64,000 bases of DNA from the IMG/VR virus record IMGVR_UViG_3300005546_000003, positions 1 through 64,000 of that record; one strand, 5' to 3'. The notes under the pieces were generated by a model. The model had not been told where the DNA came from and searched no databases. It saw nothing but the letters and a program-made list of their open reading frames with translations. Made by a program: the position numbers and the translations under genes. This DNA is from a virus (lineage: Duplodnaviria; Caudoviricetes). The stretch's first letter is position 1. Every line of letters starts with the position of its first letter. This document shows positions 3,045 to 46,783 of the stretch, piece by piece.

Positions 3045-3362
3045 TTATCCGACTAAGTTTGGTGCGGAGCCCGGTTCTGTGGTTGATTGACTGATGATCG
3101 CTTTGGTCATGCCGTTGATAAGGCTTTGAACTGATACTTCAAAGTCTTCGGCACATTGAGGATATTGCTGTGCAAGCGAGGTTATCCTCATAGTAAGGTC
3201 TCTAATCTCAGCCATGAAAGCCGAACTTTCCTGCTCAGGGCTTGGCCCTGCCTGGGTAGGTTGAGCGGTTGATTGCCCTAGAAGGGAAGGCGAAGGAGCT
3301 GCGGGAGCTTCTGGTGCCATTGGAGCTTGGGCGACTCCTAAGGACGGCGAGGGGATTGGCAA
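3045..3362 (-). CDS. Pro/Ala-rich hypothetical protein (head assembly region)
   Basis: 105-aa ORF between portal region and scaffold; start codon uncertain (TTG at 3362 or an internal ATG). Confidence 0.55.
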   Translation of the reverse strand: MPIPSPSLGVAQAPMAPEAPAAPSPSLLGQSTAQPTQAGPSPEQESSAFMAEIRDLTMRITSLAQQYPQCAEDFEVSVQSLINGMTKAIISQSTTEPGSAPNLVG

Positions 3363-3569
3363 GGTCTTATAGCTCGGCTTTCATCGTTGAGATATTTGGT
3401 AATGCTTCCCAGAGGGTCTACTGGGCGAATTCTCTAGAAGGGTTCCTACTAGAGCAGCACCAGTGCTATTTAACCTGTACTATAGCCTAAAGGTGTGGGG
3501 CTGGCATTTGCTCGGCTAGCCCCAAACGAGTTGCAGAGAGGACAGGCCCACGAGGGGCTCTGCATAGTG

Positions 3570-3598
3570 AATGTATCATAAAAGAACAGAGTTGTCAA
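3570..3598 (-). promoter_or_regulatory. Sigma70-like promoter upstream of the scaffold/capsid operon
   Basis: Minus strand TTGACA-17 nt-TACATT with TG extension. Confidence 0.6.
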
Positions 3599-3888
3599 GT
3601 GTCAATGTATGACTTTCGGACTAATTCCTCAGTGAGGTTCTCTGTGCTCCTAATTACCTGCATAAGATCCTCGGAAACTGAGCGTATTGGTCCAGACATG
3701 AATGAGGCTGGGCAGCTCTTAATCTTAGCATCATAAAGGCGCTTACATATGCAGCTGGGGCAGAGAAGACCCCCTAAGTTCTTAGTTGGAGAAATGCGAC
3801 GCCATATATAAGAGGGTACAATTAAGTCTGGGAACCCATGTTTATCCCCATATGGGCGGGCACAATCATGGCATTTGGCCTTGCTCAT
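3595..3888 (-). CDS. Hypothetical protein with CxxC pairs
   Basis: 97 aa, CHDC and CPSC motifs; starts 3 nt downstream of the portal stop. Confidence 0.6.
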   Translation of the reverse strand: MSKAKCHDCARPYGDKHGFPDLIVPSYIWRRISPTKNLGGLLCPSCICKRLYDAKIKSCPASFMSGPIRSVSEDLMQVIRSTENLTEELVRKSYIDT

Positions 3889-3890
3889 AA

Positions 3891-5999
3891 CTAATTCGGT
3901 CCTCCTGCTCCTGATTCACTGATGGTCTGGCGTGGGATGCCGTTTTCGTCCTTTTTATCAAGCATTTGTGGGGGTTCCTGACCTGAGCTTGGGCGACCCT
4001 CTTGGCCAGCGGCTTGACCTATAGCCCCTAGAGCCCCCAGCACCTGCCCTTCTGGGCTATTTGCTAGCATCATTTGCTGGGCCTGCATCTGGATTGCCAT
4101 TTGGATCTCGGCCATGATTTTCTGCCAGGCCTCCCAGCGCTCCACTACTGTGTTAGCGCCGTCGGGTGGTTTGCCGAAGTTCGGAATGTCGAAGACCTCA
4201 GCTAAGGTCCAGGGATCAATAGGGACACCAGACTTTTGGAGCTGGAGGTACAGTAGCTTCCGAGTCATTTGAGTAATCTGGTGCAAGCTATTTGGGACAA
4301 CGTGGAACACAAAGTTATTCTGGTGCCAGTTGGCTCGAAGGTGCTGGGGGCTGGAGCTTGGGAACCGCTCGTCTTCCCAAGGGAAATGAGAAGGAATCAT
4401 ACTAGCAGGCTCGAAGTCGAAGTCCTCTTCGGTCAAGCCGTCTGGGCCTAAAACTTGAACCTTCCTAGCTGCTGTGTAGTATTGGAAAACCATGCTCTTG
4501 AACATCTCTCCCACGTCGCGTAGGGAGCGTTCCATGTTGCGGCTCATGTCATAAACCAGCGGTCCTGCTAGTTCCATGAGCTTTTCGATGCTATCGCTAG
4601 CTGGGGTTTGGCGGGCTTTGGCTAGAGAGGTCAGGTCCTGAACGCCAACTAGATAATCAGCCCTATCTTCTAGGGTTTGCATTACTTCGGGAATCCAATT
4701 CGGCACATCAAACTGCGAAGGGTCGAAAACTGGTTTAACTGGATCGGTTACCCCAGCGGTTGAGTCTACTTCAATCTTAGCCCCTGCTTGCCGGGGGTCA
4801 AATCTATCTATCATTGGCTTCCCAACAACAGAGCGGTCATACTGCACGGGCGGTCGAAGCCTCACGTTAGCACTATCCACAACTGCCCTATACAAGCTAT
4901 TAACGCTATCCATGATTGGAATCGAGTCTCGAACTAGGCTGTAGCCCAAGAATTCCCAAGGCCAGTCGTCTACTCGAAATTGCACTATTGGCACCTTGCC
5001 GTGCCAAAACGGGTTAGGGCCGTCCTTTATGATATGGCTCCGAGTGCAGGTAATTAACCGGAGCCTCGGGTACATCAGCGCCTCCTCTGGCGTTGTTACG
5101 TGAATCTTTGGAGTTCCATCAGCATTCAGCGCTCCAGTTGGAGTTTGCTTACCCACGTAAGGAACAGTGTAGCTCCAGTTAGTCCCAGCGTCACCCATTA
5201 GGATATCGGCTCCCGAATGATTAACACTGGTGTCCCGGATGTAAATGTTGAATATATCTATGGTTGGATAATTATCCGTGCTAGTGCTCTGGCTGGTTGC
5301 ATAATTTAGCACCGGACTGCCCCACTTCTGTACCTTTTCCTTAGCTTTAGCGAACCAGCTCGGAGCATCTCTATCCGGACTTAGCCAATGGCTATGCAAT
5401 GGATACATTGCAACTGCTTGACCTAATGGTACTTCAGTTCTGATGATAACAGCTTGAGCGCGTTGCAGATCATTGTCTGCGCCAATACCCACCGGCAGCA
5501 CGTCTTTAGGTCCATGAGCCTTAAGCGCAACGTCTCCACGCCCTGCGAACCAAAGGTCTCTTTCCCATGCAATGGACAAATAACCTGTACCAAGTACAGT
5601 GGCATACTGGAGGGCTTCTCTAATCGAACGATCCACGAATTGGTTGTGGAACCAGGCAAGCATGAGTTTATTGAGGATTTCAACGTGTCGGTCATAGAGG
5701 GGGTTGTCGGACTTGTAGCCCCACATGGGGCGGATGTTGGAGAGGGTGCCGACTACTTCGCGCATCTGGCGCTTGATTCGGTTGATGTGGAGCTGGGAGA
5801 GCTTAGCGGGGCGGCGTTGGGTAGCACCAGCTATGGTAGCAATGGCAGTGTCGATATCTTCAAAGGCTCGGGTCGAGCGAATTAGAGCTTCGCCCTGGGA
5901 GATAGAACGAGTCACCCAGGCTAGTTTGTCTTTTTCGTCTGCGGTTATTGGGGGAGCTTTGTAGAACTCGGGAGAATTTGGGGTGAGGTTGGAGAGCAT
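3891..5999 (-). CDS. Portal protein
   Basis: 702 aa, position between terminase and scaffold; portal-like segments (REALQYATVLGTGYLSI, YSLVRDSIPIMDSVNSL, Gln-rich C-terminal barrel). Confidence 0.8.
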   Translation of the reverse strand: MLSNLTPNSPEFYKAPPITADEKDKLAWVTRSISQGEALIRSTRAFEDIDTAIATIAGATQRRPAKLSQLHINRIKRQMREVVGTLSNIRPMWGYKSDNPLYDRHVEILNKLMLAWFHNQFVDRSIREALQYATVLGTGYLSIAWERDLWFAGRGDVALKAHGPKDVLPVGIGADNDLQRAQAVIIRTEVPLGQAVAMYPLHSHWLSPDRDAPSWFAKAKEKVQKWGSPVLNYATSQSTSTDNYPTIDIFNIYIRDTSVNHSGADILMGDAGTNWSYTVPYVGKQTPTGALNADGTPKIHVTTPEEALMYPRLRLITCTRSHIIKDGPNPFWHGKVPIVQFRVDDWPWEFLGYSLVRDSIPIMDSVNSLYRAVVDSANVRLRPPVQYDRSVVGKPMIDRFDPRQAGAKIEVDSTAGVTDPVKPVFDPSQFDVPNWIPEVMQTLEDRADYLVGVQDLTSLAKARQTPASDSIEKLMELAGPLVYDMSRNMERSLRDVGEMFKSMVFQYYTAARKVQVLGPDGLTEEDFDFEPASMIPSHFPWEDERFPSSSPQHLRANWHQNNFVFHVVPNSLHQITQMTRKLLYLQLQKSGVPIDPWTLAEVFDIPNFGKPPDGANTVVERWEAWQKIMAEIQMAIQMQAQQMMLANSPEGQVLGALGAIGQAAGQEGRPSSGQEPPQMLDKKDENGIPRQTISESGAGGPN

Positions 6000-6007
6000 A
6001 AATAAAG

Positions 6008-6472
6008 TTACTCAAGGATTTCGATTCTAAATCCGGGATCAGAAGTGTAGTATTTGGAACCTTCCTCTCGGTCGGCGCGCTCTATGGCAGCTTGGGCTAG
6101 GTCCCGACCTAGGGGGCTCATGTGGCGCATGGCTACTCGGAGCTCTTCGCGTTGTTCCTTGTGAACATGGGCATAAGCTGCTTGCATAGCAGAGAGGTGT
6201 TTTTCCATCTTGATGCGCTCTAGGGAGTTCATTTGCTTGCCGAATCGCCTAGCTTCGTGGGGGGTCATTTCGACTTTCTCGAAGCCGAGCTTGGCTAGGC
6301 GCTTGGGGAGCTTTTCGTCTGCTCGGCCTGGGAACTGGACATTGCCGGAGCCATCTTTATAAACCACAATTGGTTTATCGGTGAAGCTAGAGGTCATTGT
6401 GGTGCTGCCATGGGGACAGAAGGGCCAGTCGCCGATTTGGAGCTCTTGGGCGCAGTTATCGCACTTCATCAA
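6008..6472 (-). CDS. Hypothetical protein with N-terminal zinc ribbon
   Basis: 154 aa, CDNC...WPFCPH N-terminus; immediately upstream of the portal. Confidence 0.6.
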   Translation of the reverse strand: MMKCDNCAQELQIGDWPFCPHGSTTMTSSFTDKPIVVYKDGSGNVQFPGRADEKLPKRLAKLGFEKVEMTPHEARRFGKQMNSLERIKMEKHLSAMQAAYAHVHKEQREELRVAMRHMSPLGRDLAQAAIERADREEGSKYYTSDPGFRIEILE

Positions 6473-6584
6473 TATAGTATCCCATCCTTATTGGGGGCAG
6501 CCAGTTGAAGAACCATTGGCCGCTGAGGAATTTGATTATAAACTGAACGGCTCCATCTTCGCGGATATAAGCTTTAACTCTCAT
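6456..6584 (-). CDS. Small hypothetical protein (42 aa)
   Basis: MRVKAYIREDGAVQFIIKFLSGQWFFNWLPPIRMGYYIDEVR; overlaps both neighbours and fills the gap; below the ORF-track cut-off. Confidence 0.4.
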   Translation of the reverse strand: MRVKAYIREDGAVQFIIKFLSGQWFFNWLPPIRMGYYIDEVR

Positions 6585-6747
6585 AAGTAAAAACAGTCTT
6601 TGTAAACCCCCCACCTTCAAAATATGGAGCCTTTTTCATTTTCTCCCACTTCTCTATAGACTCAGTGTGGAACTTAATAAGCTCTAGAAGCTGCTCTGGC
6701 GTTAACGAACTGAGAGACTCATCACTATAAATATCACAGTCACACAT
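6574..6747 (-). CDS. Small hypothetical protein (57 aa)
   Basis: MCDCDIYSDESLSSLTPEQLLELIKFH...TYES; fills the gap downstream of TerL. Confidence 0.45.
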   Translation of the reverse strand: MCDCDIYSDESLSSLTPEQLLELIKFHTESIEKWEKMKKAPYFEGGGFTKTVFTYES

Positions 6748-6818
6748 TTACGGTGCCCCCTTCTCCAATTCCATCCAGAATCTTCGGGTTCTTTTGTCCA
6801 TGTTTTATAGCTCATCGT

Positions 6819-8969
6819 TTAGCAAAACTCCTCAAACTCTCCCCGCTCAACCCAGTAGTCCTCGGGGGCCTTCTCAGCTCCAGCAGCTATGTGCCAGCTG
6901 GGTTTCCAGACTGGGTGAATCTGGCTCTCGGCGTCAGCTTGAACTCTAGCTTGCCATGCTGGGGTTGCGCTGCGATACTGTTCAGCTCTATGAAGGTCAA
7001 ATAGGACAATTCCTAGGCTCATTAGTCTGTCGTCGTGGGCTCCTTCAGCAGCCTCTAGCCTTTCTTTCTTTTCATTTCTGATGAAATTCCCCATTTCATC
7101 AACAAACCACGGGCTGTTAACCTGTAACCACCCATCCACTAGGGCTTTGCGCAAAAAGTCAAGCATCGGCCCCCGGCTAGCTTCGGTGGTTTTCCACCCG
7201 AATAGTGGGGTTGTCTTGTTGGTCAAAACCATTCCTCTAGTGTATTGCTTTTGCTGAAGGCTGAAATTATGCCAGCCTCGCTTCCAGAGCTCGTTCTGGG
7301 TAGCTTCACCATTGGCCGCCATTTCTACCACTATTTTAGCTTGCTTAGTTTCTCCACCTCCGCTTGGGATGGTGGAGAACAATGTAGACAGCGCGAGGAC
7401 AAACGGCCAGATTTCAAAAGCTCCGCTCTGATCTGATGCAAACTCTGCGCACTGCTCGGCATCTGAGTAAGGAGTAGCCTTTCGCAGGACTTGCACCACG
7501 GTTCTGTCTTGGCCGACCCCGAAGGCAGTGTCAACTCCAACTCCATAGTCGTTGAATTTTTCTGGCATTGCATATAGAAATATCTTCCCCAGAGGGTCCA
7601 TATCACTTAATCCAGTCCACTTTAGCGGAACCAGTTGAAATCTCCCCTTAGCTCCAACCCTAGTAGCGTCGATAGTAAGCGGTTTGAATGAGGATTTTCG
7701 GTCTATCTCACGCTCGCTCGGCTGGAGGCGGAGGGGAATTTCACCCTCTGCACCAACCAATCCTAGCACAACTAGCGGGGGATTGCAAGCGTTTCGTTTT
7801 TCAGCCAGGAACTCGGCCCCGAAGATGCTCATTCGCTTGTGCTGGAAGGCCTCTAGGTCATCGGCTGGCATCTCCTGGTACCATTTGTTTAGCTCCCCGT
7901 TGGCTGCATATTCTTGCCGATTGACCTCATAGAACCACTTTTGCTCAACTGGCATCTGCCAGCCAGCTGGGAAGTATTTACTCAAAATCGGGTTAGCAGC
8001 TACATACTCCTCGGCCCTGCTGGCATGGTCTTCTACCTGATCGCTTGGCTTGTAATCACGCGGAACCTTGTGAGCCTTGAGCCAAGTTGTGTTGGGGTAT
8101 AGATCTGTCCCGACATACCACGGTAGAAATACTGGCCGCAGCCTTGACATACCTTTGGAGTAGTTAGCCTTGGCATATTCCCATTTCTTGTGCCACCAGT
8201 TGTCTCGACCGTTAGCTGTGGATTCAAGGGCAAGTAATACGAAGGGATCATCATGCATAGCTCGCAATAGTGAGGCATCGACGAGCTCTTCGGGCTGCTC
8301 AAAGTCGGCGAGCTCAGAGAGGTGAGCAACCGTAGGTGTGGTACCACGGGCGATACCAGTGGTCTGGTTGCCCCATTGAATACTAACTGCGGAGTCAAGT
8401 TCTCCATATTCTATTAGTTCTCCTGCTTTATATTTGGTGCGCTGGGGGAGCAGCCACCAAGGTTGGTTTGACCAACAGAATAGCATCATGTCGGCCATTT
8501 TGCGAGACTTATCTGGGTCGGAGCTAGCCACGATGGCGTTAACGTGGGAGTGAAATTGAACTCTATGGCCGGTTATGAGCTCAAACAAAGTGCTCATACC
8601 GAGCTGGCGGGCCTTGAGTAGCTGAAGCATCAAGGCAATGCCTAGCTCTTGCATTTCGCCCATGATGTCTAGGATGATGTTTTGGGCTATATTGGGGATA
8701 AATTTGACCTTGCGATTGCCTTTATCCCTAATGTAGGCATAATTTCTAGCCCAATAGCGAAAGTCAAGCGTACAGAGTAGCCTTTCGGTTTCTATCCACT
8801 GTAGCTCATCTTGAGCTAGCTGACGGGTTGGTTGGCCATTTTCACCTAGAAGCTCATTGAAGTGCTTGACATAGGCTTCGATTTGTGCTCCGGTGCTCTC
8901 GGCTAGGGCTCTGCCCAGCTCACGCTCGGCGAGCTTTTTGTGGTGGGAGATGACTTTGGGCGAGTACAA
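6819..8969 (-). CDS. terL: Terminase large subunit
   Basis: LKARQLGMST Walker A context, AHLSELAD Walker B, LESTANG coupling motif, C-terminal RNase H-like nuclease (GVGVDTA, HDDRLMS). Confidence 0.92.
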   Translation of the reverse strand: MYSPKVISHHKKLAERELGRALAESTGAQIEAYVKHFNELLGENGQPTRQLAQDELQWIETERLLCTLDFRYWARNYAYIRDKGNRKVKFIPNIAQNIILDIMGEMQELGIALMLQLLKARQLGMSTLFELITGHRVQFHSHVNAIVASSDPDKSRKMADMMLFCWSNQPWWLLPQRTKYKAGELIEYGELDSAVSIQWGNQTTGIARGTTPTVAHLSELADFEQPEELVDASLLRAMHDDPFVLLALESTANGRDNWWHKKWEYAKANYSKGMSRLRPVFLPWYVGTDLYPNTTWLKAHKVPRDYKPSDQVEDHASRAEEYVAANPILSKYFPAGWQMPVEQKWFYEVNRQEYAANGELNKWYQEMPADDLEAFQHKRMSIFGAEFLAEKRNACNPPLVVLGLVGAEGEIPLRLQPSEREIDRKSSFKPLTIDATRVGAKGRFQLVPLKWTGLSDMDPLGKIFLYAMPEKFNDYGVGVDTAFGVGQDRTVVQVLRKATPYSDAEQCAEFASDQSGAFEIWPFVLALSTLFSTIPSGGGETKQAKIVVEMAANGEATQNELWKRGWHNFSLQQKQYTRGMVLTNKTTPLFGWKTTEASRGPMLDFLRKALVDGWLQVNSPWFVDEMGNFIRNEKKERLEAAEGAHDDRLMSLGIVLFDLHRAEQYRSATPAWQARVQADAESQIHPVWKPSWHIAAGAEKAPEDYWVERGEFEEFC

Positions 8970-17100: not shown

Positions 17101-17369
17101 TGCCATGCTATGATGATAGAGACTCGCCATCAAATGTGCGGGCAGAATCTCAAGCACAAATTGACAAGCTAACCAGATTGCTCTGTGAGGCTTGCCTGAC
17201 CATTACCAACGTAGAGAATAAAGCAATTTGCAGCGTTGAGCTGCGAGAGTGGTGGGCCAATCATCAGAAAATCGACAAGAAGCGCAAGCAAGAGGAACGG
17301 CAAGCTAAGAGAGGCATAATAGTTATGGCTGAACTAACTAAAGCAGAAAGAGAGGCTCTAGGCTTGTAG
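17100..17369 (+). CDS. Hypothetical protein
   Basis: 89 aa; MPC N-terminus, LTRLLCEAC and LREWWANHQKID segments; TAATG coupling. Confidence 0.65.
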   Translation: MPCYDDRDSPSNVRAESQAQIDKLTRLLCEACLTITNVENKAICSVELREWWANHQKIDKKRKQEERQAKRGIIVMAELTKAEREALGL

Positions 17370-17383
17370 CTAGTTTTCTCTGT

Positions 17384-17473
17384 TCTCAAACCCCTAACTC
17401 TACAAGAGCTATGACAATTTAGTCAGGCAAGGCATAAGATGGAATCGCCTTGGCTCAGGGTAGGGGTTTGAGA
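17384..17473 (+). ncRNA. Candidate structured RNA (three-way junction on a 13-bp stem)
   Basis: TCTCAAACCCCTA/TAGGGGTTTGAGA closing stem, GAGC/GCTC, hairpins TGAC/GTCA and CAAGGC/GCCTTG; intergenic; strand not certain. Confidence 0.4.
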
Positions 17474-17781
17474 TGAGGGAAAAGCTAAGCTATAGCAGGG
17501 TTAGGGAAGGTTGGCTAATTGGGCAACTGGTAATCTTGCTTAGGGATTAAGCCAGAGAACAATCTTAGTCCTAGTGCAATGCTAGGGAGTGAGAATGAAG
17601 CTCAGCTTAATTGCTGGCCCTGGGTGGCTGCGGTAGGAGTGAGCGGGGGTTTTGAGTAGCAAATACAGACCAGCCCTAGCTCTAGGTTTGAGCTTGCACC
17701 TAATACAGCTGCCAGCCTAATCAAGCTCCTGCTGTTCGGGCTGCCTGGGGCTTGTATATTTGAGGGAGGAGCGGAGGAAAA

Positions 17782-36426: not shown

Positions 36427-37605
36427 ATGCCTTTTTTAATTGACAGATCGAGATTGCAGCGATACTATGATTGTCCACGAGCATTTTTCTGGCAATACCT
36501 ATATGGAGGCCTTGGAGTCGCCCCAGCCCGCACTAGCATTCCCCTCGTTGTTGGAGGGGCAGTGCATAAGGGACTTGAGCGATTGCTCCTTGGAGACCCA
36601 GAGGATGTGGCGGCAAGTAGTGCTGTTGGTGAGTTTACGGATCGCTTGGGCTCAGGTCTCGCACTTGAGCCAAGAGAGAATGCTAGCCAAGTCTATGCCG
36701 AGCAAGCTAGCTTGGTGGAGGGATTAGTTAGGGTTTATGCTAGGCGGGGGTTGCCGAGGTTATTGGAGGAATATGAAGTTCTTGAGGTCGAACGAGAGGA
36801 CAACTTGGAGGTTGCACCAGGGGTCATTCTTATGGCTCGTGCTGATGGCTTGTTACGCAAGTGTAGCAATGGTCAGCTATTCGTTCTTAGCTTCAAGACT
36901 GCCAAGCATTATACTAATCAGCATTCTAGCGACGGAAGCCATGATGTTCAGGGATTATCGGAATCGGCTATTATTGAATCACGGTTAGGCCAAGAAGTAA
37001 CCGGAACCTTAATGGTTTACTTGGTGAAAGGAGACCGAAGTGAATATCCACCGGACAGCGGAACATATATCCAGTCAAGTCCTCTTGTTCACCCTTGGGT
37101 GCGCAGTAGTGCAGGGGGTTCTGTTGGGGTTGGCGATCTTGCTCATAGCTTCAAATGGCGAGACACCACTGGGGGTCATACCTTAGGCAAAGGGTGGTAT
37201 AGGGGAAACATTGAAGACTACATGCCCATATCAGAATGGATCACCTTACTGGATGAGAATAAAATCCAGCCTGAGGCGGGCGATATTCTTGAATCGCTCA
37301 TTGTCCAACCGCCACCGTACATGCGCAGACGTTCCGAGGCGCAGGATTGGCTTGAGCAAACGGCGGGGCTAGGGAATAGGATTAAGCTAGATGCTGAGGC
37401 CTTGAGCTCAGAGCTAGGATTCAGGGACAAAGGCCATGCACTTAATGTCTTGTTCCCCCAGAACCGTCGGAGCTGTGACTGGCCTAGCAAGTGCCCGTTC
37501 CAAGATATATGCTTTGGGCCAGCAGGGGAGCCGCTAGAGAGCGGATTGTATAAGGAGAGGGAGCCACATCATGAACGAGAAATCGAGCAGGCAAAACGAT
37601 CCTGA
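36427..37605 (+). CDS. PD-(D/E)xK nuclease, Cas4/RecB-like exonuclease
   Basis: SRLQRYYDCPRAFFWQY, GGAVHKGLE, ARADGLL, SFKT, CDWPSKCPFQDIC. Confidence 0.82.
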   Translation: MPFLIDRSRLQRYYDCPRAFFWQYLYGGLGVAPARTSIPLVVGGAVHKGLERLLLGDPEDVAASSAVGEFTDRLGSGLALEPRENASQVYAEQASLVEGLVRVYARRGLPRLLEEYEVLEVEREDNLEVAPGVILMARADGLLRKCSNGQLFVLSFKTAKHYTNQHSSDGSHDVQGLSESAIIESRLGQEVTGTLMVYLVKGDRSEYPPDSGTYIQSSPLVHPWVRSSAGGSVGVGDLAHSFKWRDTTGGHTLGKGWYRGNIEDYMPISEWITLLDENKIQPEAGDILESLIVQPPPYMRRRSEAQDWLEQTAGLGNRIKLDAEALSSELGFRDKGHALNVLFPQNRRSCDWPSKCPFQDICFGPAGEPLESGLYKEREPHHEREIEQAKRS

Positions 37606-37879: not shown

Positions 37880-38743
37880 ATGTTAACAAATCAAGCAATA
37901 ACCAGCCTGAGCTACGGAGCTAGCGGCACTTACAAGACAACAGCAGTGGGCCATTTCGCCCGCTACATTCACGAGAAGACTAAGAAAAAGACTCGCCTAA
38001 TAGCTAGCGACACCAACGTGGAGCCGATTCAGGATTACATAGATAGTGGCCTAGTTGAGCCAATCTTTCTAACCGAAAATCCAGACCTCCTTGGCTTCGC
38101 TGTGCAGCTCTGCCGGGGCTATTGGCCTAAAGATGGCAAGCTAGTAGCTGGCTTTGGAATGGAGGAAGTTGGAGGCTATGCTATGGAAGGCTTGACTAGC
38201 CTTAGTCAGCTCCTAATGACCCACTTTGCCCAAAAGGGTCAGAAGATTCAAGAGGAAGTAGTTGGGATGTTTAGTGAAGCTGGGGTTAAGTTTGGGGCTA
38301 ATCCTAGGTCTCACTATGGCTTTGTGCAGGGGCAGATATACAACATATTGACTGACCTCCGGGCTCTCCCAGTTGAGCGGGTCTTCATAACAGCTCATGA
38401 AGGAAAGGGGCAGGATGATTTTAGCAAACAGCTTGTTTATGGCCCAGCTGCTGTTGGCACGGCAGCTACTGCGCGTATCCCACCTTATGTCGGGGATTTG
38501 TTCCACCATGATATTGTTGAGGTGGGTAGCGGCTCTGCAAAGTCCATTGAAGTTAGGGCCTTCCTCCAGCCCCACCCAGACCCGCAGACCAAGGTAATGT
38601 GGCCTGCTAAGACCCGGCTGAGGCCTAGCATAGTGAAGCAGGTTATGGAGAGATTTCCAGAAGGATACATCAGGCTCGGGTTGGATTCTGGAATTGACCA
38701 ATACTTCAGAGTGCAAGATGAGATAAGGGAGAAGAGCAAATGA
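37880..38743 (+). CDS. AAA ATPase, Sak4-like recombinase
   Basis: YGASGTYKT Walker A, EGLTSL, FITAHE, YGPAAVG; sits between the exonuclease and SSB-like gene. Confidence 0.75.
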   Translation: MLTNQAITSLSYGASGTYKTTAVGHFARYIHEKTKKKTRLIASDTNVEPIQDYIDSGLVEPIFLTENPDLLGFAVQLCRGYWPKDGKLVAGFGMEEVGGYAMEGLTSLSQLLMTHFAQKGQKIQEEVVGMFSEAGVKFGANPRSHYGFVQGQIYNILTDLRALPVERVFITAHEGKGQDDFSKQLVYGPAAVGTAATARIPPYVGDLFHHDIVEVGSGSAKSIEVRAFLQPHPDPQTKVMWPAKTRLRPSIVKQVMERFPEGYIRLGLDSGIDQYFRVQDEIREKSK

Positions 38744-39294: not shown

Positions 39295-39903
39295 ATGAGT
39301 AATATGGGAACTAAATCAGCCGCAGATATTAATAATCTGCAACTAGCTGACGAGGGCTTTGACCCTACAGCTAACCAGTATGCGGCTCCGAGGCCGCCGA
39401 CTCCAGGGATCTACCTAGCCAGCTTGGACTTCCGTGAGGAAGACCCCGAAAAGCGGTTCCGAATTATGCCATATAACAGCGAGAAGTACCCAGCCAAGGC
39501 TGGTACGGCTTATCTCAAGACCGAGCTTCTGGGCACGATTACCGAGGTTGGTAATGAGTTTGAAGGTCGGAAGGTCAGGGATCGGTTCATGAGCACCGGC
39601 ATCTTCAATAAGCCAACCTCTGGTGTGGCTAGTCTGTTGCTCACGCTTGGTGAGACTCTCCAAGGTAACGAAGGCCATCAGGAGCTAGCTAATATGCTCA
39701 GCAATATCTTGGCCGGAGAGCCCACGGTGCGAATCCGCACTGACTGGGAGTGGCAGGGGAGCAAAGAGGGTGGCTACCAGACCATCAAGGGATACAAGAA
39801 CTTCCCTGAGGTTAATGGAACGGTTAACCACATCGTCGAGGACGAGACCACAGGCGAGAAGTTTGCAGCCTATGGGATCATTACGGGCTACTTGATTAAC
39901 TAA
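39295..39903 (+). CDS. Putative single-stranded DNA-binding protein
   Basis: PTPGIYLASL N-terminus and beta-rich body, located in the exonuclease-Sak4 recombination module; inferred from context. Confidence 0.55.
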   Translation: MSNMGTKSAADINNLQLADEGFDPTANQYAAPRPPTPGIYLASLDFREEDPEKRFRIMPYNSEKYPAKAGTAYLKTELLGTITEVGNEFEGRKVRDRFMSTGIFNKPTSGVASLLLTLGETLQGNEGHQELANMLSNILAGEPTVRIRTDWEWQGSKEGGYQTIKGYKNFPEVNGTVNHIVEDETTGEKFAAYGIITGYLIN

Positions 39904-39915
39904 TGGTAGCATTGT

Positions 39916-40040
39916 GCCCCCATCCTTCTACAACGGACAAGGCTTTGGCACGGAATCGGCGGTCGCTCTGCCGCAAGGCAACGATCTAGAGGGATAAACC
40001 CGTGGTGGGTAGCGAGTGGTTGACCAAGAAGGATGGGGGC
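39916..40040 (+). ncRNA. Multi-branch structured RNA, unclassified
   Basis: Perfect 14-bp closing stem GCCCCCATCCTTCT/AGAAGGATGGGGGC; internal CACGG/CCGTG, GGTCG/CGATC, TGCC-GCAA-GGCA. Confidence 0.55.
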
Positions 40041-40047
40041 TACCTTT

Positions 40048-40156
40048 CTAGCAGGGTCGGGCCTGCTAGTCTGAGCTAGCCGAGGGCTTAACGAGACTTG
40101 GCCTAGAGCTCAGCTTAGAACTGAGAGCCGGATAGCTTCGCAGCCAGTCCGGCTTT
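40048..40156 (+). ncRNA. Run of stable hairpins
   Basis: CTAGCAGG/CCTGCTAG, CTGAGCT/AGCTCAG, AGAGCCGGA/TCCGGCTTT. Confidence 0.4.
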
Positions 40157-40169
40157 TGGTCCTAAGAGC

Positions 40170-40264
40170 TAGAGAGTAAGCAGTAGTTCAATTGGTTAGA
40201 ACGCTAGCCACTGAAGGTTTGACCTACTAGCATATCCGGTTCAAGTCCGGCTGCTTACTCTCTA
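40170..40264 (+). ncRNA. tRNA-like element (non-decoding)
   Basis: 14-bp acceptor-like stem TAGAGAGTAAGCAG/CTGCTTACTCTCTA, TA, D arm GTTC-AATTGGTTA-GAAC, CTAG/CTAG stem with a 19-nt loop, T arm CCGG-TTCAAGT-CCGG; no CCA. Confidence 0.7.
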
Positions 40265-40273
40265 CCTAGAGCT

Positions 40274-40346
40274 CGCCCCATTCCGCCTCCTAAGGACAAG
40301 AGGGATCAGGGGAGTGGGGCGTCCGGCATGAGGCCTGATCCCTCTT
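40274..40346 (+). ncRNA. Pseudoknotted hairpin
   Basis: 13-bp stem 40298-40310/40334-40346; loop GGAGTGGGGCG can pair over 11 bp (one G-U) with upstream CGCCCCATTCC (40274-40284). Confidence 0.5.
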
Positions 40347-40350
40347 AGAA

Positions 40351-40455
40351 TAGAGAGCCAAGACTGGAATCCTGCTAATAACTGCTCAGTGGGAAGTAAG
40401 TCCGCAAGTGAGTAAGCAGCACCTGAGCGGACGAAACTCCTTTACTTGCTCTCTA
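40351..40455 (+). ncRNA. Structured RNA domain, unclassified
   Basis: TAGAGAGC/GCTCTCTA closing stem; CTGCTCAG/CTGAGCGG and the alternative GTCCGC/GCGGAC pairing. Confidence 0.4.
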
Positions 40456-40463
40456 TTTTAAGC

Positions 40464-40617
40464 TCGTGGCATCGAATAAGTAGTGACGCTATATAAAATG
40501 GTTCGCCAAGGGGCAATCCCACGCGGCAACGAAAGTTGCGGAATGGTGGAGCGATAGCGAATGGCGCTCTGGCCTTGGAGGAGCAGGGTGGAGAAGCGGG
40601 ACTCCCTGCTGCCACGA
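40464..40617 (+). ncRNA. Ornate multi-branch RNA domain, unclassified
   Basis: TCGTGGCA/TGCCACGA, CCAAGG/CCTTGG, GCAA and GAAA tetraloop hairpins, GAGCG/CGCTC, AGCAGGG/CCCTGCT, possible pseudoknot CGCTAT/ATAGCG. Confidence 0.55.
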
Positions 40618-40623
40618 CAAAGT

Positions 40624-40720
40624 TGAGGTTGAAGGTTCGATAGGTAAGTAACTGCCTATTGGGGGGAGTTCTGGATTCTCTTGCGAGAACTTCTTTTTTT
40701 TTTAGGTTCCTTCAACCTCA
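40624..40720 (+). ncRNA. Structured element enclosing a terminator-like hairpin and U tract
   Basis: 12-bp stem TGAGGTTGAAGG/CCTTCAACCTCA around GATAGGTA/TGCCTATT and GAGTTCT/AGAACTT followed by a T run. Confidence 0.45.
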
Positions 40721-40723
40721 TTA

Positions 40724-40854
40724 TGACCCCCTTACAGGACGACTGCACTATCTATGGAGCGGCTGGGGTAAGAGGTACCTCGGTCCAGCCACTACTCCTA
40801 GCTAGGTACGCCGCTCGGCACTAGCGCAGAGAGGGACAGGTCCTGAGGGGGTCG
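40724..40854 (+). ncRNA. Multi-branch RNA domain, unclassified
   Basis: TGACCCCCT/AGGGGGTCG, CAGGAC/GTCCTG, GAGCGGC/GCCGCTC. Confidence 0.45.
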
Positions 40855-40864
40855 TCAAAAGGTT

Positions 40865-41185
40865 ATGAGTGAAACTTTATATACAACTAATGAGCTGATC
40901 CAGGTTCTTGAGTCTTCTTACATGAGGGATGTAATTGGGGGAAGTCCTTATATGAGAGGATATTCGGCTGGCATGACTGATCTTGCTAGAACTCTGGCAT
41001 TCAGGCTCAAGAACAATACAATTCGTGGAGTAGAGATTCCAAAGGAGACTCACCACCACACCCTATGTTGCTCAGGCTGGCCAGAGGAGATGGATTGTGA
41101 AGGAGTCTCAGAGAACTGTTCTTGTTTGACTGGGAAGGCTTCAACCTCGGGGCTATGTGCTAGATGTAGATTGGAGAAACTATGA
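40865..41185 (+). CDS. Hypothetical protein
   Basis: 106 aa, YMRGYSAG motif, Cys-rich C-terminus. Confidence 0.55.
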   Translation: MSETLYTTNELIQVLESSYMRDVIGGSPYMRGYSAGMTDLARTLAFRLKNNTIRGVEIPKETHHHTLCCSGWPEEMDCEGVSENCSCLTGKASTSGLCARCRLEKL

Positions 41186-41813: not shown

Positions 41814-42128
41814 ATGGCTGATGAATCCCCAAGTACACGTTTGCGCTCCCTAGATGAGGACCACTTCTACTTTGACGGAGTGTTGATCGACCTAGTAATG
41901 CTCCGCCATATGAGAGACCGACTCAATAAGGGAGTTCCAAAAGGCCAGTGGAGAGACGTTCATGGGCGCAACTCCGCAGTTTACATGCTTGAGGTCTATG
42001 CTGGTGGACTAGCAGGTACTAATCACTGTGGAGATCTGGTGACACCCGAAAAGGTGGCTAAATACTTAAAGGAGTGCCACGCATTCAATCTACCAACGGG
42101 CTGGGAGGAAGAGAAGCAGATTCTATAG
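41814..42128 (+). CDS. Hypothetical protein
   Basis: 104 aa, GAGGA RBS. Confidence 0.6.
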   Translation: MADESPSTRLRSLDEDHFYFDGVLIDLVMLRHMRDRLNKGVPKGQWRDVHGRNSAVYMLEVYAGGLAGTNHCGDLVTPEKVAKYLKECHAFNLPTGWEEEKQIL

Positions 42129-42150
42129 CCCTATCCGCAGGGCTATAGTC

Positions 42151-42242
42151 GGCCAGTCGGGCAGCGCTCCTTGGCTGGAGAGCTCCCAACATAGGTAGCC
42201 TTTTAGCCTAAACGCAAAGACTGCCCATCGCATAGGCTGGTC
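42151..42242 (+). ncRNA. Candidate multi-branch RNA
   Basis: GGCCAGTC/GGCTGGTC and GGGCAG/CTGCCC nested stems with two inner hairpins; preceded by a 10-bp hairpin (42123-42148) and followed by a terminator. Confidence 0.4.
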
Positions 42243-42246
42243 TAGA

Positions 42247-42281
42247 GGGGGAGTGAGCTTCGGCTTGCTCTCCCTTTTTTT
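42247..42281 (+). terminator. Intrinsic terminator
   Basis: GGGGGAGTGAGC-TTCG-GCTTGCTCTCCC followed by T7. Confidence 0.75.
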
Positions 42282-42358
42282 GTGACTAGAAGCTGAGCTC
42301 TCACCGCGAGGGCTTGGAGACAGAAACAAGCCAGGTTAACCTTAAGGAGAACTGAAAG

Positions 42359-42700
42359 ATGAAAAGACTTTACGTTTGGCTCGTGGTCAGCACCATGCTT
42401 ATGTTCAATGACCAGGAAACGGGTGGTGGCGCTACCAGCGTCAGTGAGCCAGTGGCGCTCGAAGGCGACGTTGAGGAAGTGGTCTCGGGCGGCGAGCCCG
42501 CAGCTCAGCCTTACGGCTTCGAGGACAAGCTCATTGATGCAATCAACGCCGCCGTGGGGGATACCAGTATCGAAGACCCCGGCCTCGTCGTCACGACCGC
42601 GTTCTGCGGCTGGCTCCGCGACAACAACGTAGACCCATCGGCATTCGCCTCCCTGCAAGGCGAAACCACGAGCGAGGCATCGGCTTCGGTCGCGGCCTAA
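42359..42700 (+). CDS. Acidic hypothetical protein, probably highly expressed
   Basis: 113 aa, AAGGAG RBS, strongly C/G-ending codons, many D/E. Confidence 0.65.
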   Translation: MKRLYVWLVVSTMLMFNDQETGGGATSVSEPVALEGDVEEVVSGGEPAAQPYGFEDKLIDAINAAVGDTSIEDPGLVVTTAFCGWLRDNNVDPSAFASLQGETTSEASASVAA

Positions 42701-42742
42701 GGAAGCAGGAAACTAGAGAGGGGAAAATCCACTCGACCGTGT

Positions 42743-42782
42743 GGGGCAGGGAGAATTCACACTCTTCCTGCCCCTTTAGTTT
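42743..42782 (+). terminator. Probable intrinsic terminator
   Basis: GGGGCAGGGAGA/TCTTCCTGCCCC followed by TTTAGTTT. Confidence 0.55.
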
Positions 42783-43983: not shown

Positions 43984-44013
43984 TTGACTCTAAGCTGATC
44001 CTTGTGGTATCAT
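43984..44013 (+). promoter_or_regulatory. Sigma70-like promoter for the DNA polymerase gene
   Basis: TTGACT-18 nt-TATCAT with TG extension; ATG at 44021 follows after 7 nt. Confidence 0.6.
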
Positions 44014-46783
44014 GCTGCCCATGCAGCAGATACTTTCTCAGTTACCGATAATCAAGAATCGCCCCCGAGCTCACCCTAGCTCTTGCTCTGGCTGTCCGCT
44101 TGATAAGCTTGGGGTTGGCTTTGCAGAGCCAGAGGGCAAATGTACTCTCGGCGTCTTGATTGTAGGTGAAGCTCTAGGAGAAGCTGAGTCTAAAGACTCT
44201 CTTCCCTTTAGACCTTATGCTCAAGCAGGTTCAGTTCTTGATAGAATAATTAGAAAGGCAACTTTTAGCCGTGAACAGTTTGGATTCTTTAACCTCGTCA
44301 ATTGCAGGCCCCCAGACAACGCCCTCGACGGAGCCCCTTGGGAGCTCGGAGCGGTCAACCATTGCAGTCCAAATCTCCGTAGAGTTGTCGAGCATTTCCG
44401 CCCTAAGGTCATACTCGCGCTTGGTGGAGTCCCTCTTCGACACCTTACAGGCATGGCGGGCCGAAAGCGAGGGATCTCCCTGCTTCGAGGTTTCGCTCTC
44501 CAGGCAATTCAATATCGGGGAGACGACGGAAGACCACTAACTGTTATATCAAGTTATCATCCCAGCTTTATAGCTAGGGGAGCTAGTAAGTTAATTGGAG
44601 TCCTAATTAGGGATATCCAATTCGCAGTCCAGGTTGCTAGGGAGGGCATAGAGCGTGAAACGCCACATTACATTGAATTTCCCACGGCTAAGGATGCAAG
44701 TGAATTTATACATGAGCTGGAACAGGATATCTCAGCTCCTGTCGCTTACGATATCGAGACAGACTATTCGACCAGAGAGGCCGATGAAAGTGAGCTCCAA
44801 GGTAGAGGGGCTATTACGCAGATTCAGTTCTCCCTGCGGCCAGGAAGCGCCATCGTTTGCCCGTGGCAGGGAAGATGGATAGAATTTAGCAAAAAGGTTC
44901 TAGCTAGCCCGAACCCCAAATGGGGCTGGAACAGCGCAGGCTTTGACGATAGGATACTAAAGGCTAATGGCATTCAAATCTCAGGTCCTCGGCACGATCT
45001 CATGCGAGCATGGGGACATTCGCAACCTGACCTTCCCAAAGGGCTCCAGTATGCTACGAGTTTCTATGCCCCTACGTTGCCCCCTTGGAAGCACTTGGCT
45101 GACAGTCAAGCCGAGTTCTATGGGGGACTTGACGTTGATAGTGTTCAGAGGATCGGGCGAAAGATCTTTACTGACCTTTCAGCGGCTGGAATCAGGAGTG
45201 GCTATGACCGACACGTCGCAGGGCTCATTCCAGTTCTTGAACGAATGTGCGCTCGGGGGCTCCCAGTTGACCCAAAGCGTAGGGAGGCTTTTAGAGCGGA
45301 AGTTGAACTGGCGCGTAAAGCTGCTGGTGAAAGCATTCAAGAGCTTGTTCCAGAAGAGCTCAAGCAAAAGCACCCAGCTCAAGGATATAAAGTCAATCCC
45401 AAGCCCATCCGGCTCTGGCTCGCTGAGGCTGGCATCAAGTTCAAGCCAAAAGAAGACCGGCACTACAGCCCAGAGCTCATCGAAGCGGCCAAAGCTGAGG
45501 GTTATAGATGGGGGAGCTTCGAGGGCCAAGAACGGTTCTACCAAGAGCTCCCGTTCCTTGCGACCTCTACCCAACAGGTCTTGGCCTACATCAGGGCCAA
45601 GGGGCACAGGGTCCCGCTAGGGCTGAAGAGTCGAAAGGAGACTACTGAGAAGAAAGAGCTACTGAGACTGGCTCAGAGGACTGGAGATAACTTTTATCTC
45701 AAAGTAGTAGAGTATCGAGAGCTTCTAAAAGTAGTTTCTACTTATATCGACGGCTGGGACTTGGATAGTGAGGGGAGAGTTCATAGCACTATTCTTCCTG
45801 GCCCAGCAACAGGACAGCTAGCTAGTAGAGATCCTAATATACAGAATATCCCGAAAGCCGGAAAGTTAGCTAAGGCCTTTAGAAACATCATTGTCCCAAA
45901 GACTGGCCATGCTCTCGTAGCATTTGACTTTGTTGGATTCCACAGCTTAATGACTGGGTATCTTGCAAAAGACCCAGGCTTCATGCTATTATCAAGGCTG
46001 GGAATCCATGATTATCTCAGTGGGCACTTACTAAGGCTGCCAAAGGTGGATGAGTGGTTAGGCTGGTCAATCGAAGATCTAGCTGCCATTCTAGCAGAAA
46101 CAAAAGAGAAACACCCAGACACAAGGAGAAAAGCAAAGTCTGCCCTTCATGGATACAACTTCGGAATGAAGGCGCAACGACTGTATGATGAAAACATTGA
46201 AAACTTCAAATCCAAAAAAGAAGCCCAAGATATCCTTACGATGCTTGATAGCCTCTTCCCTAGAGAAGCGGCATGGAGGGAAGAGGTCAAAGAGCTCGCA
46301 GCGAGACAGACATATCTCTTGTCTCCACACGGTTATATTAGACGATTCTATGATGTCTACCACAATCGAGAAGTCAGCCGGAGCTACGAGCCCCAGCATG
46401 GAGACAGACTCTTTAGCAGAGGGGGGAAACTATACAAGCGCATAACTGGAGAAGAAGCAGAAGATGCTATAGCTTTTGGGCCTGCTAACTGTGCCTTTGG
46501 TGAGATCAAGGATAGAATGCTAGTTTGTGAGGAGCTGGATTATAATGCAAGATTTCGACTCATTAACCAGATCCATGACGAATTATTTTTTGAGCCTCCT
46601 GTTAAATTGGTGGATGAATGTTTGGCTTCTGTTGCGGAGGTTATGGAGAGTGCAAGTAAGGTATTGATTGATCCTGAGGTTGCCCCCAATGGATTGAAGG
46701 TAGGGGTTGAAGCCTCAGTTGGATATGATAGTTGGGCTCAAATGAAAACAGTTTACCAGACTGATGTAAGGAGCTTATTGTAA
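44012..46783 (+). CDS. polA: Family A DNA polymerase with N-terminal family-4 uracil-DNA glycosylase domain and 3'-5' exonuclease
   Basis: CSGCPL...VGEALG..E...PF...AG..L...NLVNCRPPDN...SYHPS (UDG4); YDIET, NSAGFD, YGGLD (Exo I-III); TGQLASRDPNIQNIP, motif A DFVGFH, motif B RRKAKSALHGYNFG, motif C QIHDEL. Start probably 44021. Confidence 0.93.
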   Translation: MLPMQQILSQLPIIKNRPRAHPSSCSGCPLDKLGVGFAEPEGKCTLGVLIVGEALGEAESKDSLPFRPYAQAGSVLDRIIRKATFSREQFGFFNLVNCRPPDNALDGAPWELGAVNHCSPNLRRVVEHFRPKVILALGGVPLRHLTGMAGRKRGISLLRGFALQAIQYRGDDGRPLTVISSYHPSFIARGASKLIGVLIRDIQFAVQVAREGIERETPHYIEFPTAKDASEFIHELEQDISAPVAYDIETDYSTREADESELQGRGAITQIQFSLRPGSAIVCPWQGRWIEFSKKVLASPNPKWGWNSAGFDDRILKANGIQISGPRHDLMRAWGHSQPDLPKGLQYATSFYAPTLPPWKHLADSQAEFYGGLDVDSVQRIGRKIFTDLSAAGIRSGYDRHVAGLIPVLERMCARGLPVDPKRREAFRAEVELARKAAGESIQELVPEELKQKHPAQGYKVNPKPIRLWLAEAGIKFKPKEDRHYSPELIEAAKAEGYRWGSFEGQERFYQELPFLATSTQQVLAYIRAKGHRVPLGLKSRKETTEKKELLRLAQRTGDNFYLKVVEYRELLKVVSTYIDGWDLDSEGRVHSTILPGPATGQLASRDPNIQNIPKAGKLAKAFRNIIVPKTGHALVAFDFVGFHSLMTGYLAKDPGFMLLSRLGIHDYLSGHLLRLPKVDEWLGWSIEDLAAILAETKEKHPDTRRKAKSALHGYNFGMKAQRLYDENIENFKSKKEAQDILTMLDSLFPREAAWREEVKELAARQTYLLSPHGYIRRFYDVYHNREVSRSYEPQHGDRLFSRGGKLYKRITGEEAEDAIAFGPANCAFGEIKDRMLVCEELDYNARFRLINQIHDELFFEPPVKLVDECLASVAEVMESASKVLIDPEVAPNGLKVGVEASVGYDSWAQMKTVYQTDVRSLL

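Follow-up and report, generated by a model that had tools for sequence, protein, structure and literature searches.

A candidate array of structured noncoding RNA modules behind an SSB-like gene in a tailed-phage genome

The genome of an uncultivated tailed phage (Caudoviricetes; IMG/VR virus record IMGVR_UViG_3300005546_000003) contains a stretch of almost 1 kb in which no convincing protein gene is found, and the question is what this stretch encodes. The stretch, called the island here, is the gap at 39904-40864 between the stop codon of a gene for a 202-amino acid (aa) protein, probably similar to single-stranded DNA-binding proteins (SSB-like), and the ATG of a gene for a 106-aa protein. 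It makes up about 1.3% of the 74-kb genome. The window analyzed is the first 64 kb of the 73.6-kb record, which has direct terminal repeats and is rated complete; coordinates given without a locus number refer to the window. An earlier note on this DNA offered two alternatives for the island, one large ornate RNA or a polycistronic array of RNAs processed into separate molecules. The array is favored and the single RNA is disfavored by the present analysis. Our preferred reading, held with moderate confidence, is that the island is a plus-strand array of independent structured noncoding RNA (ncRNA) modules that are co-transcribed and cut into separate RNAs. Structure, strand bias, conservation of modules with covariation, and synteny with tRNA genes are directly supported.

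Fold and strand of the island

Only short open reading frames (ORFs) occur in 39904-40864, the longest being 48 aa on the plus strand and 57 aa on the minus strand, which agrees with the earlier view that no convincing ORF is present. Three-frame translation of the island gave no ORF ending in a tmRNA-like tag. Plus-strand ORFs of 35-48 aa lie at 40536-40643, 40659-40805, and 40681-40824, and the minus strand holds ORFs of 30-57 aa; these could be small proteins missed by ORF calling. All of them cut across predicted helices, however, and none is shared with the relatives described below, so coding by the island is barely conceivable.

The island is highly structured. Its minimum free energy (MFE) is -399.5 kcal/mol compared to -353.9 ± 6.2 kcal/mol for dinucleotide shuffles (z = -7.4), and sliding windows over the flanking coding sequence have z values near 0. 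When the base-pair span was limited to 150 nt for calling domains, the fold resolved into ten back-to-back closed domains, D1 to D10, separated by linkers of 0-8 nt. The earlier note had counted at least seven closed domains. The closing stems in the fold (14, 8, 7, ~14-19, 10, ~15-19, 5, 12, and 10 + 6 bp) agree roughly with those reported before (14, 14, 13, 8, 8, 12, and 9 bp), and the GNRA tetraloops and possible pseudoknot claimed at the same time have counterparts in the domains that follow.

All ten domains are read on the plus strand. D1 (39916-40040) is a 125-nt multi-branch domain with a 14-bp closing stem and a GCAA tetraloop at 39973-39976. D2 (40048-40069) is an 8-bp hairpin, and D3 (40071-40113) is a 43-nt stem-loop with an internal hairpin. 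D4 (40115-40165) is a 51-nt long hairpin in which GAGAGCCGGA pairs with UCCGGCUUUU and the stem contains G·U pairs on the plus strand. D5 (40166-40274) is a tRNA-like RNA with its core at 40177-40258. D6 (40275-40346) is a candidate H-type pseudoknot found by checking complementarity; two helices, one of 10 bp (40275-84 with 40311-20) and a perfect one of 13 bp (40298-310 with 40334-46), have a topology that would let them coexist, and alternative nested folds appear in the MFE and span-limited structures. D7 (40344-40462) spans 119 nt; its closing stem of ~15-19 bp and that of D5 are paralogs, as seen from direct repeats, and the 5' strand of D4 recurs at the start of D7. D4, D5, and D7 have similar outer-stem sequences of the UAGAGAG/CUCUCUA type, which suggests that a scaffold was duplicated locally. 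Neither AGAGAGCY nor TAGAGCT is a motif restricted to the island. D8 (40466-40615) is a 150-nt multi-branch domain with a GAAA tetraloop at 40531-40534, the second of the two GNRA loops, and its hairpin at ~40583-40609 carries a conserved 17-nt loop, GUGGAGAAGCGGGACUC. No target complementary to the D8 loop was found within the window.

In D9 (40624-40720), two hairpins are enclosed by a perfect closing stem of 12 bp. The second of them (~40664-40690; GGAGUUCU...AGAACUUC, or an inner UUCUC-UUGC-GAGAA) is followed by U10 at 40691-40700. A stable hairpin directly followed by a U run on the plus strand is the defining arrangement of an intrinsic terminator, and the D9 element looks like a putative one; a simple terminator scanner missed it due to a loop-size limit. 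D10 (40723-40855) is a 133-nt three-way-junction RNA that is conserved and represented by covariance model R1. It ends 10 nt before the next start codon.

Strand preference was evaluated in six loci, the window and five related loci. The plus-strand fold is more stable than the minus-strand fold by 30-65 kcal/mol in each. Interior G·U pairs on the plus and minus strands number 25/10, 25/5, 18/4, 17/8, 8/1, and 20/6, a 2-5x excess on the plus strand, and the minus-strand folds have A·C mismatches at equivalent places in most of the six loci. The tRNA-like element and the hairpin-U10 are also both read on the plus strand. The plus strand is favored as the RNA strand because the G·U bias and stability, the tRNA-like element, and the hairpin-U10 all point the same way; the G·U evidence is good but not conclusive.

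A tRNA-like element and modules shared with relatives

The tRNA-like element noted earlier in the middle of the island was recovered by Rfam model RF00005 at 40177-40258 on the plus strand with 39.9 bits (cut-off, 29 bits; E = 1e-6). The domain order of D5 is acceptor-D-anticodon-T-acceptor as in a normal tRNA, and the Rfam alignment retains the elbow nucleotides U8, A14, G18G19, A21, A15/U48, and the T loop UUCAAGU. A 7-nt anticodon loop with a readable anticodon on a 5-bp stem is absent from D5; the corresponding loop has 19 nt and lies between GCUAG and CUAGC. The T stem has 4 bp only, and the acceptor helix extends into a leader-trailer pairing of ~19 bp. ARAGORN did not call a tRNA in D5. 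By these features, D5 is best described as a tRNA mimic that cannot decode. It is the only element above the tRNA cut-off in the 73.6-kb genome, and the phage therefore appears to have no working tRNA gene. Pattern scans of IMG/VR for the D5 D arm returned ordinary tRNAs only, and no particular tRNA could be assigned as the ancestor of D5.

Relatives were located through the 202-aa protein, which has nine cluster-level relatives with 49-65% identity and further ones detected by profile. The closer relatives compared were those whose contig runs past the SSB-like gene, and every one of them has an ORF-free stretch of ~0.5-0.8 kb directly 3' of this gene. Loci are designated by number. The gaps measure 828 nt in L006, ~530-690 nt in L007/L008, 653 nt in L009, 566 nt in L012, and at least 347 nt in L011. 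They too are strongly structured, with z values of -5.2, -11.4, -2.9, -5.5, and -6.1. The gap directly behind the SSB-like gene is 210-314 nt in the distant relatives L035, L036, and L037 (210 nt in L036 and 287 nt in L037). Structure is only weak at L037 5649-5935 (z = -2.1) and in the gap tested one gene downstream in L036, at 6324-6733 (z = -1.8). A cmscan search of the relatives' gaps against Rfam at E ≤ 0.1 gave no match, and none was obtained when the island was searched by blastn in 50,697 phage records. The SSB-like protein or its alignment as query found nothing in IMG/VR or in genomes, and metagenomes returned only the known L007.

The most informative relative is L035, a 71.7-kb contig encoding a TROVE protein that is 64% identical to the one in the window. 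In this contig, tRNA-Cys and Y-like scaffolds come first, followed by TROVE, the SSB-like gene, a 196-aa gene, and a 1-kb island. In this island (z = -6.3), tRNA-Gly, tRNA-Pro, and tRNA-Asn are interspersed with similar stem-closed domains. The earlier suggestion of a link to tRNA genes is thus upheld by synteny. Because the L035 island holds tRNA genes, the position behind the SSB-like gene appears to be an RNA-gene slot in this phage group.

Similarity between the islands is patchy and runs module by module, with different relatives sharing D1, D8, or D9/D10. D10 has homologs in L007/L008 and L009 that score 121-131 bits with model R1, which was built from the three sequences. One compensatory change (CAGGAC/GUCCUG to CAGGGC/GCCCUG) occurs in its otherwise conserved 14-bp outer helix, and one pair position of a small hairpin is C-G, A-U, or G-C across the three phages. 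Paired cells amount to 93% in D10 compared to 35-56% in slid controls, and 5 pairs are changed on both sides compared to 0-1. The copies differ by these paired-column changes and by indels of 2, 14, 4, and 1 nt; the indel lengths, not multiples of three, argue against coding. Downstream of D10, the three phages have genes whose translations, compared by eye, show no similarity, which argues against a gene-specific leader. The CCUUCA sequence in the 3' strand of D9, just before D10, is conserved in L008 and L009 and closes stems with different, covarying partners. Since CCUUCA closes the preceding stem in all three phages, D9 and D10 would travel together. Among the three phages with D9/D10, the terminator-like hairpin-U10 of D9 occurs in the window only.

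D8 has a homolog at ~L009 1790-1925 with an identical GUGGAGAAGCGGGACUC loop on a compensatorily changed stem (GCAGG/CCUGC to GCCGG/CCGGC). The closing stem also changes in a compensatory manner between the window and L009 (GUGGC/GCCAC to GUAGC/GCUAC), and both copies contain a AAGUGUGAC...CUAUAAA block. No alignment to D8 was obtained in L006. The D1 homolog lies at L035 6997-7104, starting 14 nt after tRNA-Gly. The two copies of D1 have the blocks CGGACRAGGCU and GGGUAGCGAGYGGYUSACCA in common, an unrelated closing stem takes the place of the window's stem in L035, and 4 of 7 aligned closing pairs are changed on both sides. Models R1 (D10) and R2 (D1) detected no further copies in any locus examined. 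At least these three modules (D1, D8, and D9/D10) are candidate new RNA families, backed by covariation but with few members.

A further hairpin is confined to the relatives and absent from the window. A near-identical 17-18-nt loop, UAAAUCCCCAGCGGUAAU, is presented on four unrelated stems at L008 873-916, L009 1665-1706, L036 7496-7527, and L006 4106-4150; it stands as a strong candidate for a new, small RNA motif. A search with UAAAUCCCCAGCGGUAAU gave 19 matches that lack consistent stems and were taken as chance. Single matches to the D10 5' strand and to the D8 loop lie within long ORFs of unrelated high-GC contigs and were also dismissed as chance; the D10 3' strand search had no match.

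The closest precedent for modules beside tRNA genes comes from T4. T4 species 1 (rnaC) and species 2 (rnaD) are small structured RNAs that lie among the phage tRNA genes and are co-transcribed with them and processed. The D1-type module 14 nt behind tRNA-Gly in L035 and the tRNA frame kept by D5 are like this arrangement. Unlike T4, the window's phage appears to be without a working tRNA gene of its own, and its island has a location among tRNA genes by synteny only, in L035. The island is also much denser, with ten domains in <1 kb; no sequence relationship to the T4 RNAs was found, although no direct comparison with them was made.

Array of RNAs, single RNA, or DNA element

Transcription, processing, and any function of the array are inferred from its layout. 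The island would be transcribed together with the upstream recombination genes, and most transcripts would end at the hairpin-U10 terminator inside D9. The precursor would then be cut into discrete stable RNAs, with the long leader-trailer stems resembling RNase III processing stalks. In rRNA operons and the T7 early region, long leader-trailer helices of this type loop out functional RNAs and are cut by RNase III. The island is similar in having back-to-back long leader-trailer helices in one presumed transcript; its stems of 12-19 bp are shorter than the classic Escherichia coli RNase III sites. D5 may act as a handle for the host tRNA-processing enzymes RNase P and RNase Z, and would itself be a tRNA mimic with no part in decoding. 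D9/D10 would be a conserved unit at the end of the array, placed just before the small gene that happens to follow. As for function, our guess is that the modules bind proteins or serve as decoys, with host RNA-handling or defense enzymes as their targets.

Several results weigh against an array of processed plus-strand RNAs. The minus strand of the island also folds well (z = -6.5), so fold stability alone cannot decide the strand, and part of the G·U bias comes from the G-rich composition of the plus strand. A search for promoter-like sites in the island and the sequence just ahead of it was negative, which makes co-transcription with the upstream genes the simplest assumption. The leader-trailer pairing of D5 would hinder rather than help RNase P. 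Covariation statistics are weak with 2-3 sequences per module, and the values observed for D10 were reached in 9-22 of 500 shuffles. For D5, and likewise for D2-D4, D6, and D7, none of the relatives examined yielded a homolog, and D2-D7 could be young or not under selection.

That both strands fold better than their shuffles also bears on the view that the island acts as DNA, as an element of the replication and recombination module such as an origin, a primer-RNA (R-loop) region, or a recombination hot spot with single-stranded DNA hairpins. The neighborhood fits this view. A PD-(D/E)XK nuclease (36427-37605), a Sak4-like single-stranded DNA annealase (37880-38743), and the SSB-like protein (39295-39903) are encoded upstream on the plus strand, and a uracil-DNA glycosylase-fused family A DNA polymerase (UDG-PolA; 44012-46783, plus strand) is encoded downstream. 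However, G·U pairs favor one strand in 6 of 6 loci, and the island, with a GC content of 0.54, has no iterons, no AT-rich unwinding stretch, and few, short direct repeats. The tRNA-like fold and the tRNA genes at the matching site in L035 indicate RNA genes, and large loops that stay constant while their stems covary are typical of RNA. We regard a DNA-level element as rather improbable.

The second alternative is a single ornate RNA of ~0.8-0.95 kb in the manner of GOLLD or ROOL, with the domains co-folded into one particle. The domains are packed closely enough for this, and the unrestricted MFE structure draws a long-range helix spanning 39904-40614. Repeats could also allow long-range or alternative pairings: GAGUAAGCAG is present twice, and UGAAGGUUUGA, the loop of D5, is similar to the 5' strand of D9. 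Conservation does not extend to the long-range helix, however, and it is single modules, not the overall architecture, that are shared with the relatives. A cmscan search of 39700-41000 against Rfam at E ≤ 10 returned tRNA plus four weak matches far below their gathering scores (E = 0.26-5.7), in line with the earlier statement that no family could be recognized. This mosaic sharing, the real tRNA genes between domains in L035, the terminator-like hairpin-U10 inside the island, and the lack of an Rfam family other than tRNA are the reasons for preferring an array to one co-folded RNA, which we consider unlikely. GOLLD (RF01998) and ROOL (RF03087) are similar to the island in their kilobase scale, extensive structure, association with phages, and frequent location near tRNA genes. 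The island differs in that its architecture is not conserved as a whole, its modules are exchangeable, and it has an internal terminator-like hairpin. Identification of the island as GOLLD or ROOL was rejected because neither covariance model matched even at E ≤ 10.

Phage genomes are usually annotated as wall-to-wall protein genes. If the island is the proposed array, it would hold at least ten uncatalogued RNA modules at a place where relatives keep tRNA genes, and this phage group would be suited to studying the exchange of RNA cassettes between phages. Together with the Y-like array described below, the group would offer a system for asking what phage tRNA mimics and structured RNAs do. 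Should the modules turn out to act as decoys for host nucleases or as Ro60 partners, this biology would become accessible to experiment through the locus.

Ro60 and the genome setting

A link to Ro60 was proposed in the earlier note, which counted two TROVE proteins in the genome and thought that some island RNAs might be Ro cargo. A Ro60 homolog with TROVE and vWA domains is encoded at 20286-21647 and is the only Pfam TROVE match. The second protein (24540-25700) has no Pfam TROVE domain, and BLASTP against Ro60 aligned only a 14-residue LxHxKPRDKE stretch (E = 0.015). Published Y RNAs carry the Ro60-binding motif GNCGAAN0-1G near the 5' end, are encoded within ~4 kb of Ro60 on the same strand, and in bacteria carry tRNA-like domains whose order is permuted in YrlA (Chen et al. 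2014, PMC4201824). In vitro, a phage Ro60 was able to bind both phage Y-like RNAs and host polynucleotide phosphorylase (PNPase), and the Thermus phage phiLo encodes Yrl RNAs (Yrl1/2) upstream of its Ro60 (PMC12135203).

The island does not match these RNAs in motif, domain order, or distance from Ro60. GNCGAAN0-1G and the phage motif RGYGWAG have no match in 39904-40864, and the four CGAA tetramers present equal the chance expectation. The order of D5 is normal, not the permuted order of V, T, acceptor-like stem-loop, and D, and the island lies on the same strand 18.3 kb downstream of 20286-21647. The island was rejected as a YrlA-type Y RNA on all three counts (motif, domain order, and distance from Ro60), and the same findings leave the Ro cargo proposal without support. 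The resemblance to YrlA-type Y RNAs is limited to a tRNA-mimicking domain held in a long stem within a Ro60-bearing phage; the CGAA-bulge motif is lacking, and the Y-like array of this phage is a different one, immediately upstream of TROVE.

This separate array occupies the 789-nt gap at 19497-20285, which contains, within 19535-20285, four elements with RGYGWAG and YGNUUGUUCY; the 4 occurrences of RGYGWAG lie in 19542-20200. In one of the four elements, at ~19735-19800 beside TROVE, a T arm, a stem-loop, and a D arm follow one another in the permuted YrlA order, and Rfam tRNA reaches only 19.3 bits at 19773-19843. The array at 19.5-20.3 kb matches the published picture because Y RNAs lie within 4 kb of, or upstream of, Ro60. 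A Y-like scaffold is also found upstream of TROVE in L035 (3262-3572). The L035 elements from tRNA-Cys to the tRNA/ncRNA island all lie within 4.5 kb on one strand (3192-7529), and in the window the same elements are separated by an 18-kb block that includes an amidoligase/ATP-grasp/GATase cluster.

A looser form of the Ro60 proposal is that some island RNAs are partners or clients of the phage Ro60, with D5, for example, as an unpermuted, long-stemmed Y-like RNA, or are structured substrates or decoys for a Ro60-Y RNA-PNPase complex. The presence of the TROVE and vWA protein in this phage, the tRNA-like domains of known Y RNAs, and the in vitro binding by phage Ro60 are consistent with it. 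So is L035, where TROVE lies directly upstream of the SSB-like gene and the island starts 1.6 kb after TROVE on the same strand. Against it stand the missing motifs, the normal order of D5 with the YrlA-type T-AS-D arrangement located beside TROVE instead, and the distance of 18.3 kb from TROVE compared to the published 4 kb. In addition, ±10 kb of TROVE in another TROVE phage, L042, contain no comparable ORF-free gap and no D10-type module. We consider partnership of island RNAs with Ro60 doubtful. The adjacency in L035 and the general binding of structured RNAs by Ro60 keep a functional link in view at a low probability. It is similarly a long shot that the island is a second class of Ro60 partner RNAs, with the long-stemmed D4/D5/D7 scaffolds presenting varied heads, an unpermuted tRNA mimic among them, and serving as decoys or adaptors by which host nucleases of tRNA or RNA processing or of defense are diverted during infection. 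If so, the phage would have two batteries of display RNAs, the Y-like array at 19.5 kb and the island at 39.9 kb.

All genes from ~15.5 to 47.8 kb are on the plus strand. The 202-aa protein has no match to a Pfam or PHROG family, and a profile search places it in a family of 320 clusters at 50% identity. The protein belongs to a conserved phage family without a name or a model in either database. Its AlphaFold2 model has a predicted local distance difference test (pLDDT) score of 81. Foldseek gave weak matches to this model, mostly oligonucleotide/oligosaccharide-binding (OB)-fold single-stranded DNA binders (PrgE, RPA, and SSB), with PrgE best (E = 0.035; prob = 0.96). The protein is probably an OB-fold SSB-like protein, and the label given in the earlier note is reasonable though not proven. 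The 106-aa gene on the plus strand (ATG at 40865) is an orphan, since a search for relatives of its product found none, and several small orphan genes lie between the island and the DNA polymerase gene.

Two other regions of the window were noted. The segment 42129-42796 was considered as a second RNA island and ruled out, as it is a 113-aa gene flanked by hairpins. The ORF (42359-42700) has a good Shine-Dalgarno site, and strong hairpins surround it at 42123-42148, 42244-42277 (15 bp with a UUCG loop, followed by UUU), and 42743-42775. The hairpins around this ORF (42123-42782) look like terminators or insulators for one gene. The ORF-free 412-nt gap at 17370-17781 folds better on the plus strand (z = -4.0) than on the minus strand (z = -1.4). 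It contains two long-stemmed domains of ~130 nt (17365-17494 and 17617-17751) and may be a third structured-RNA locus of this phage.

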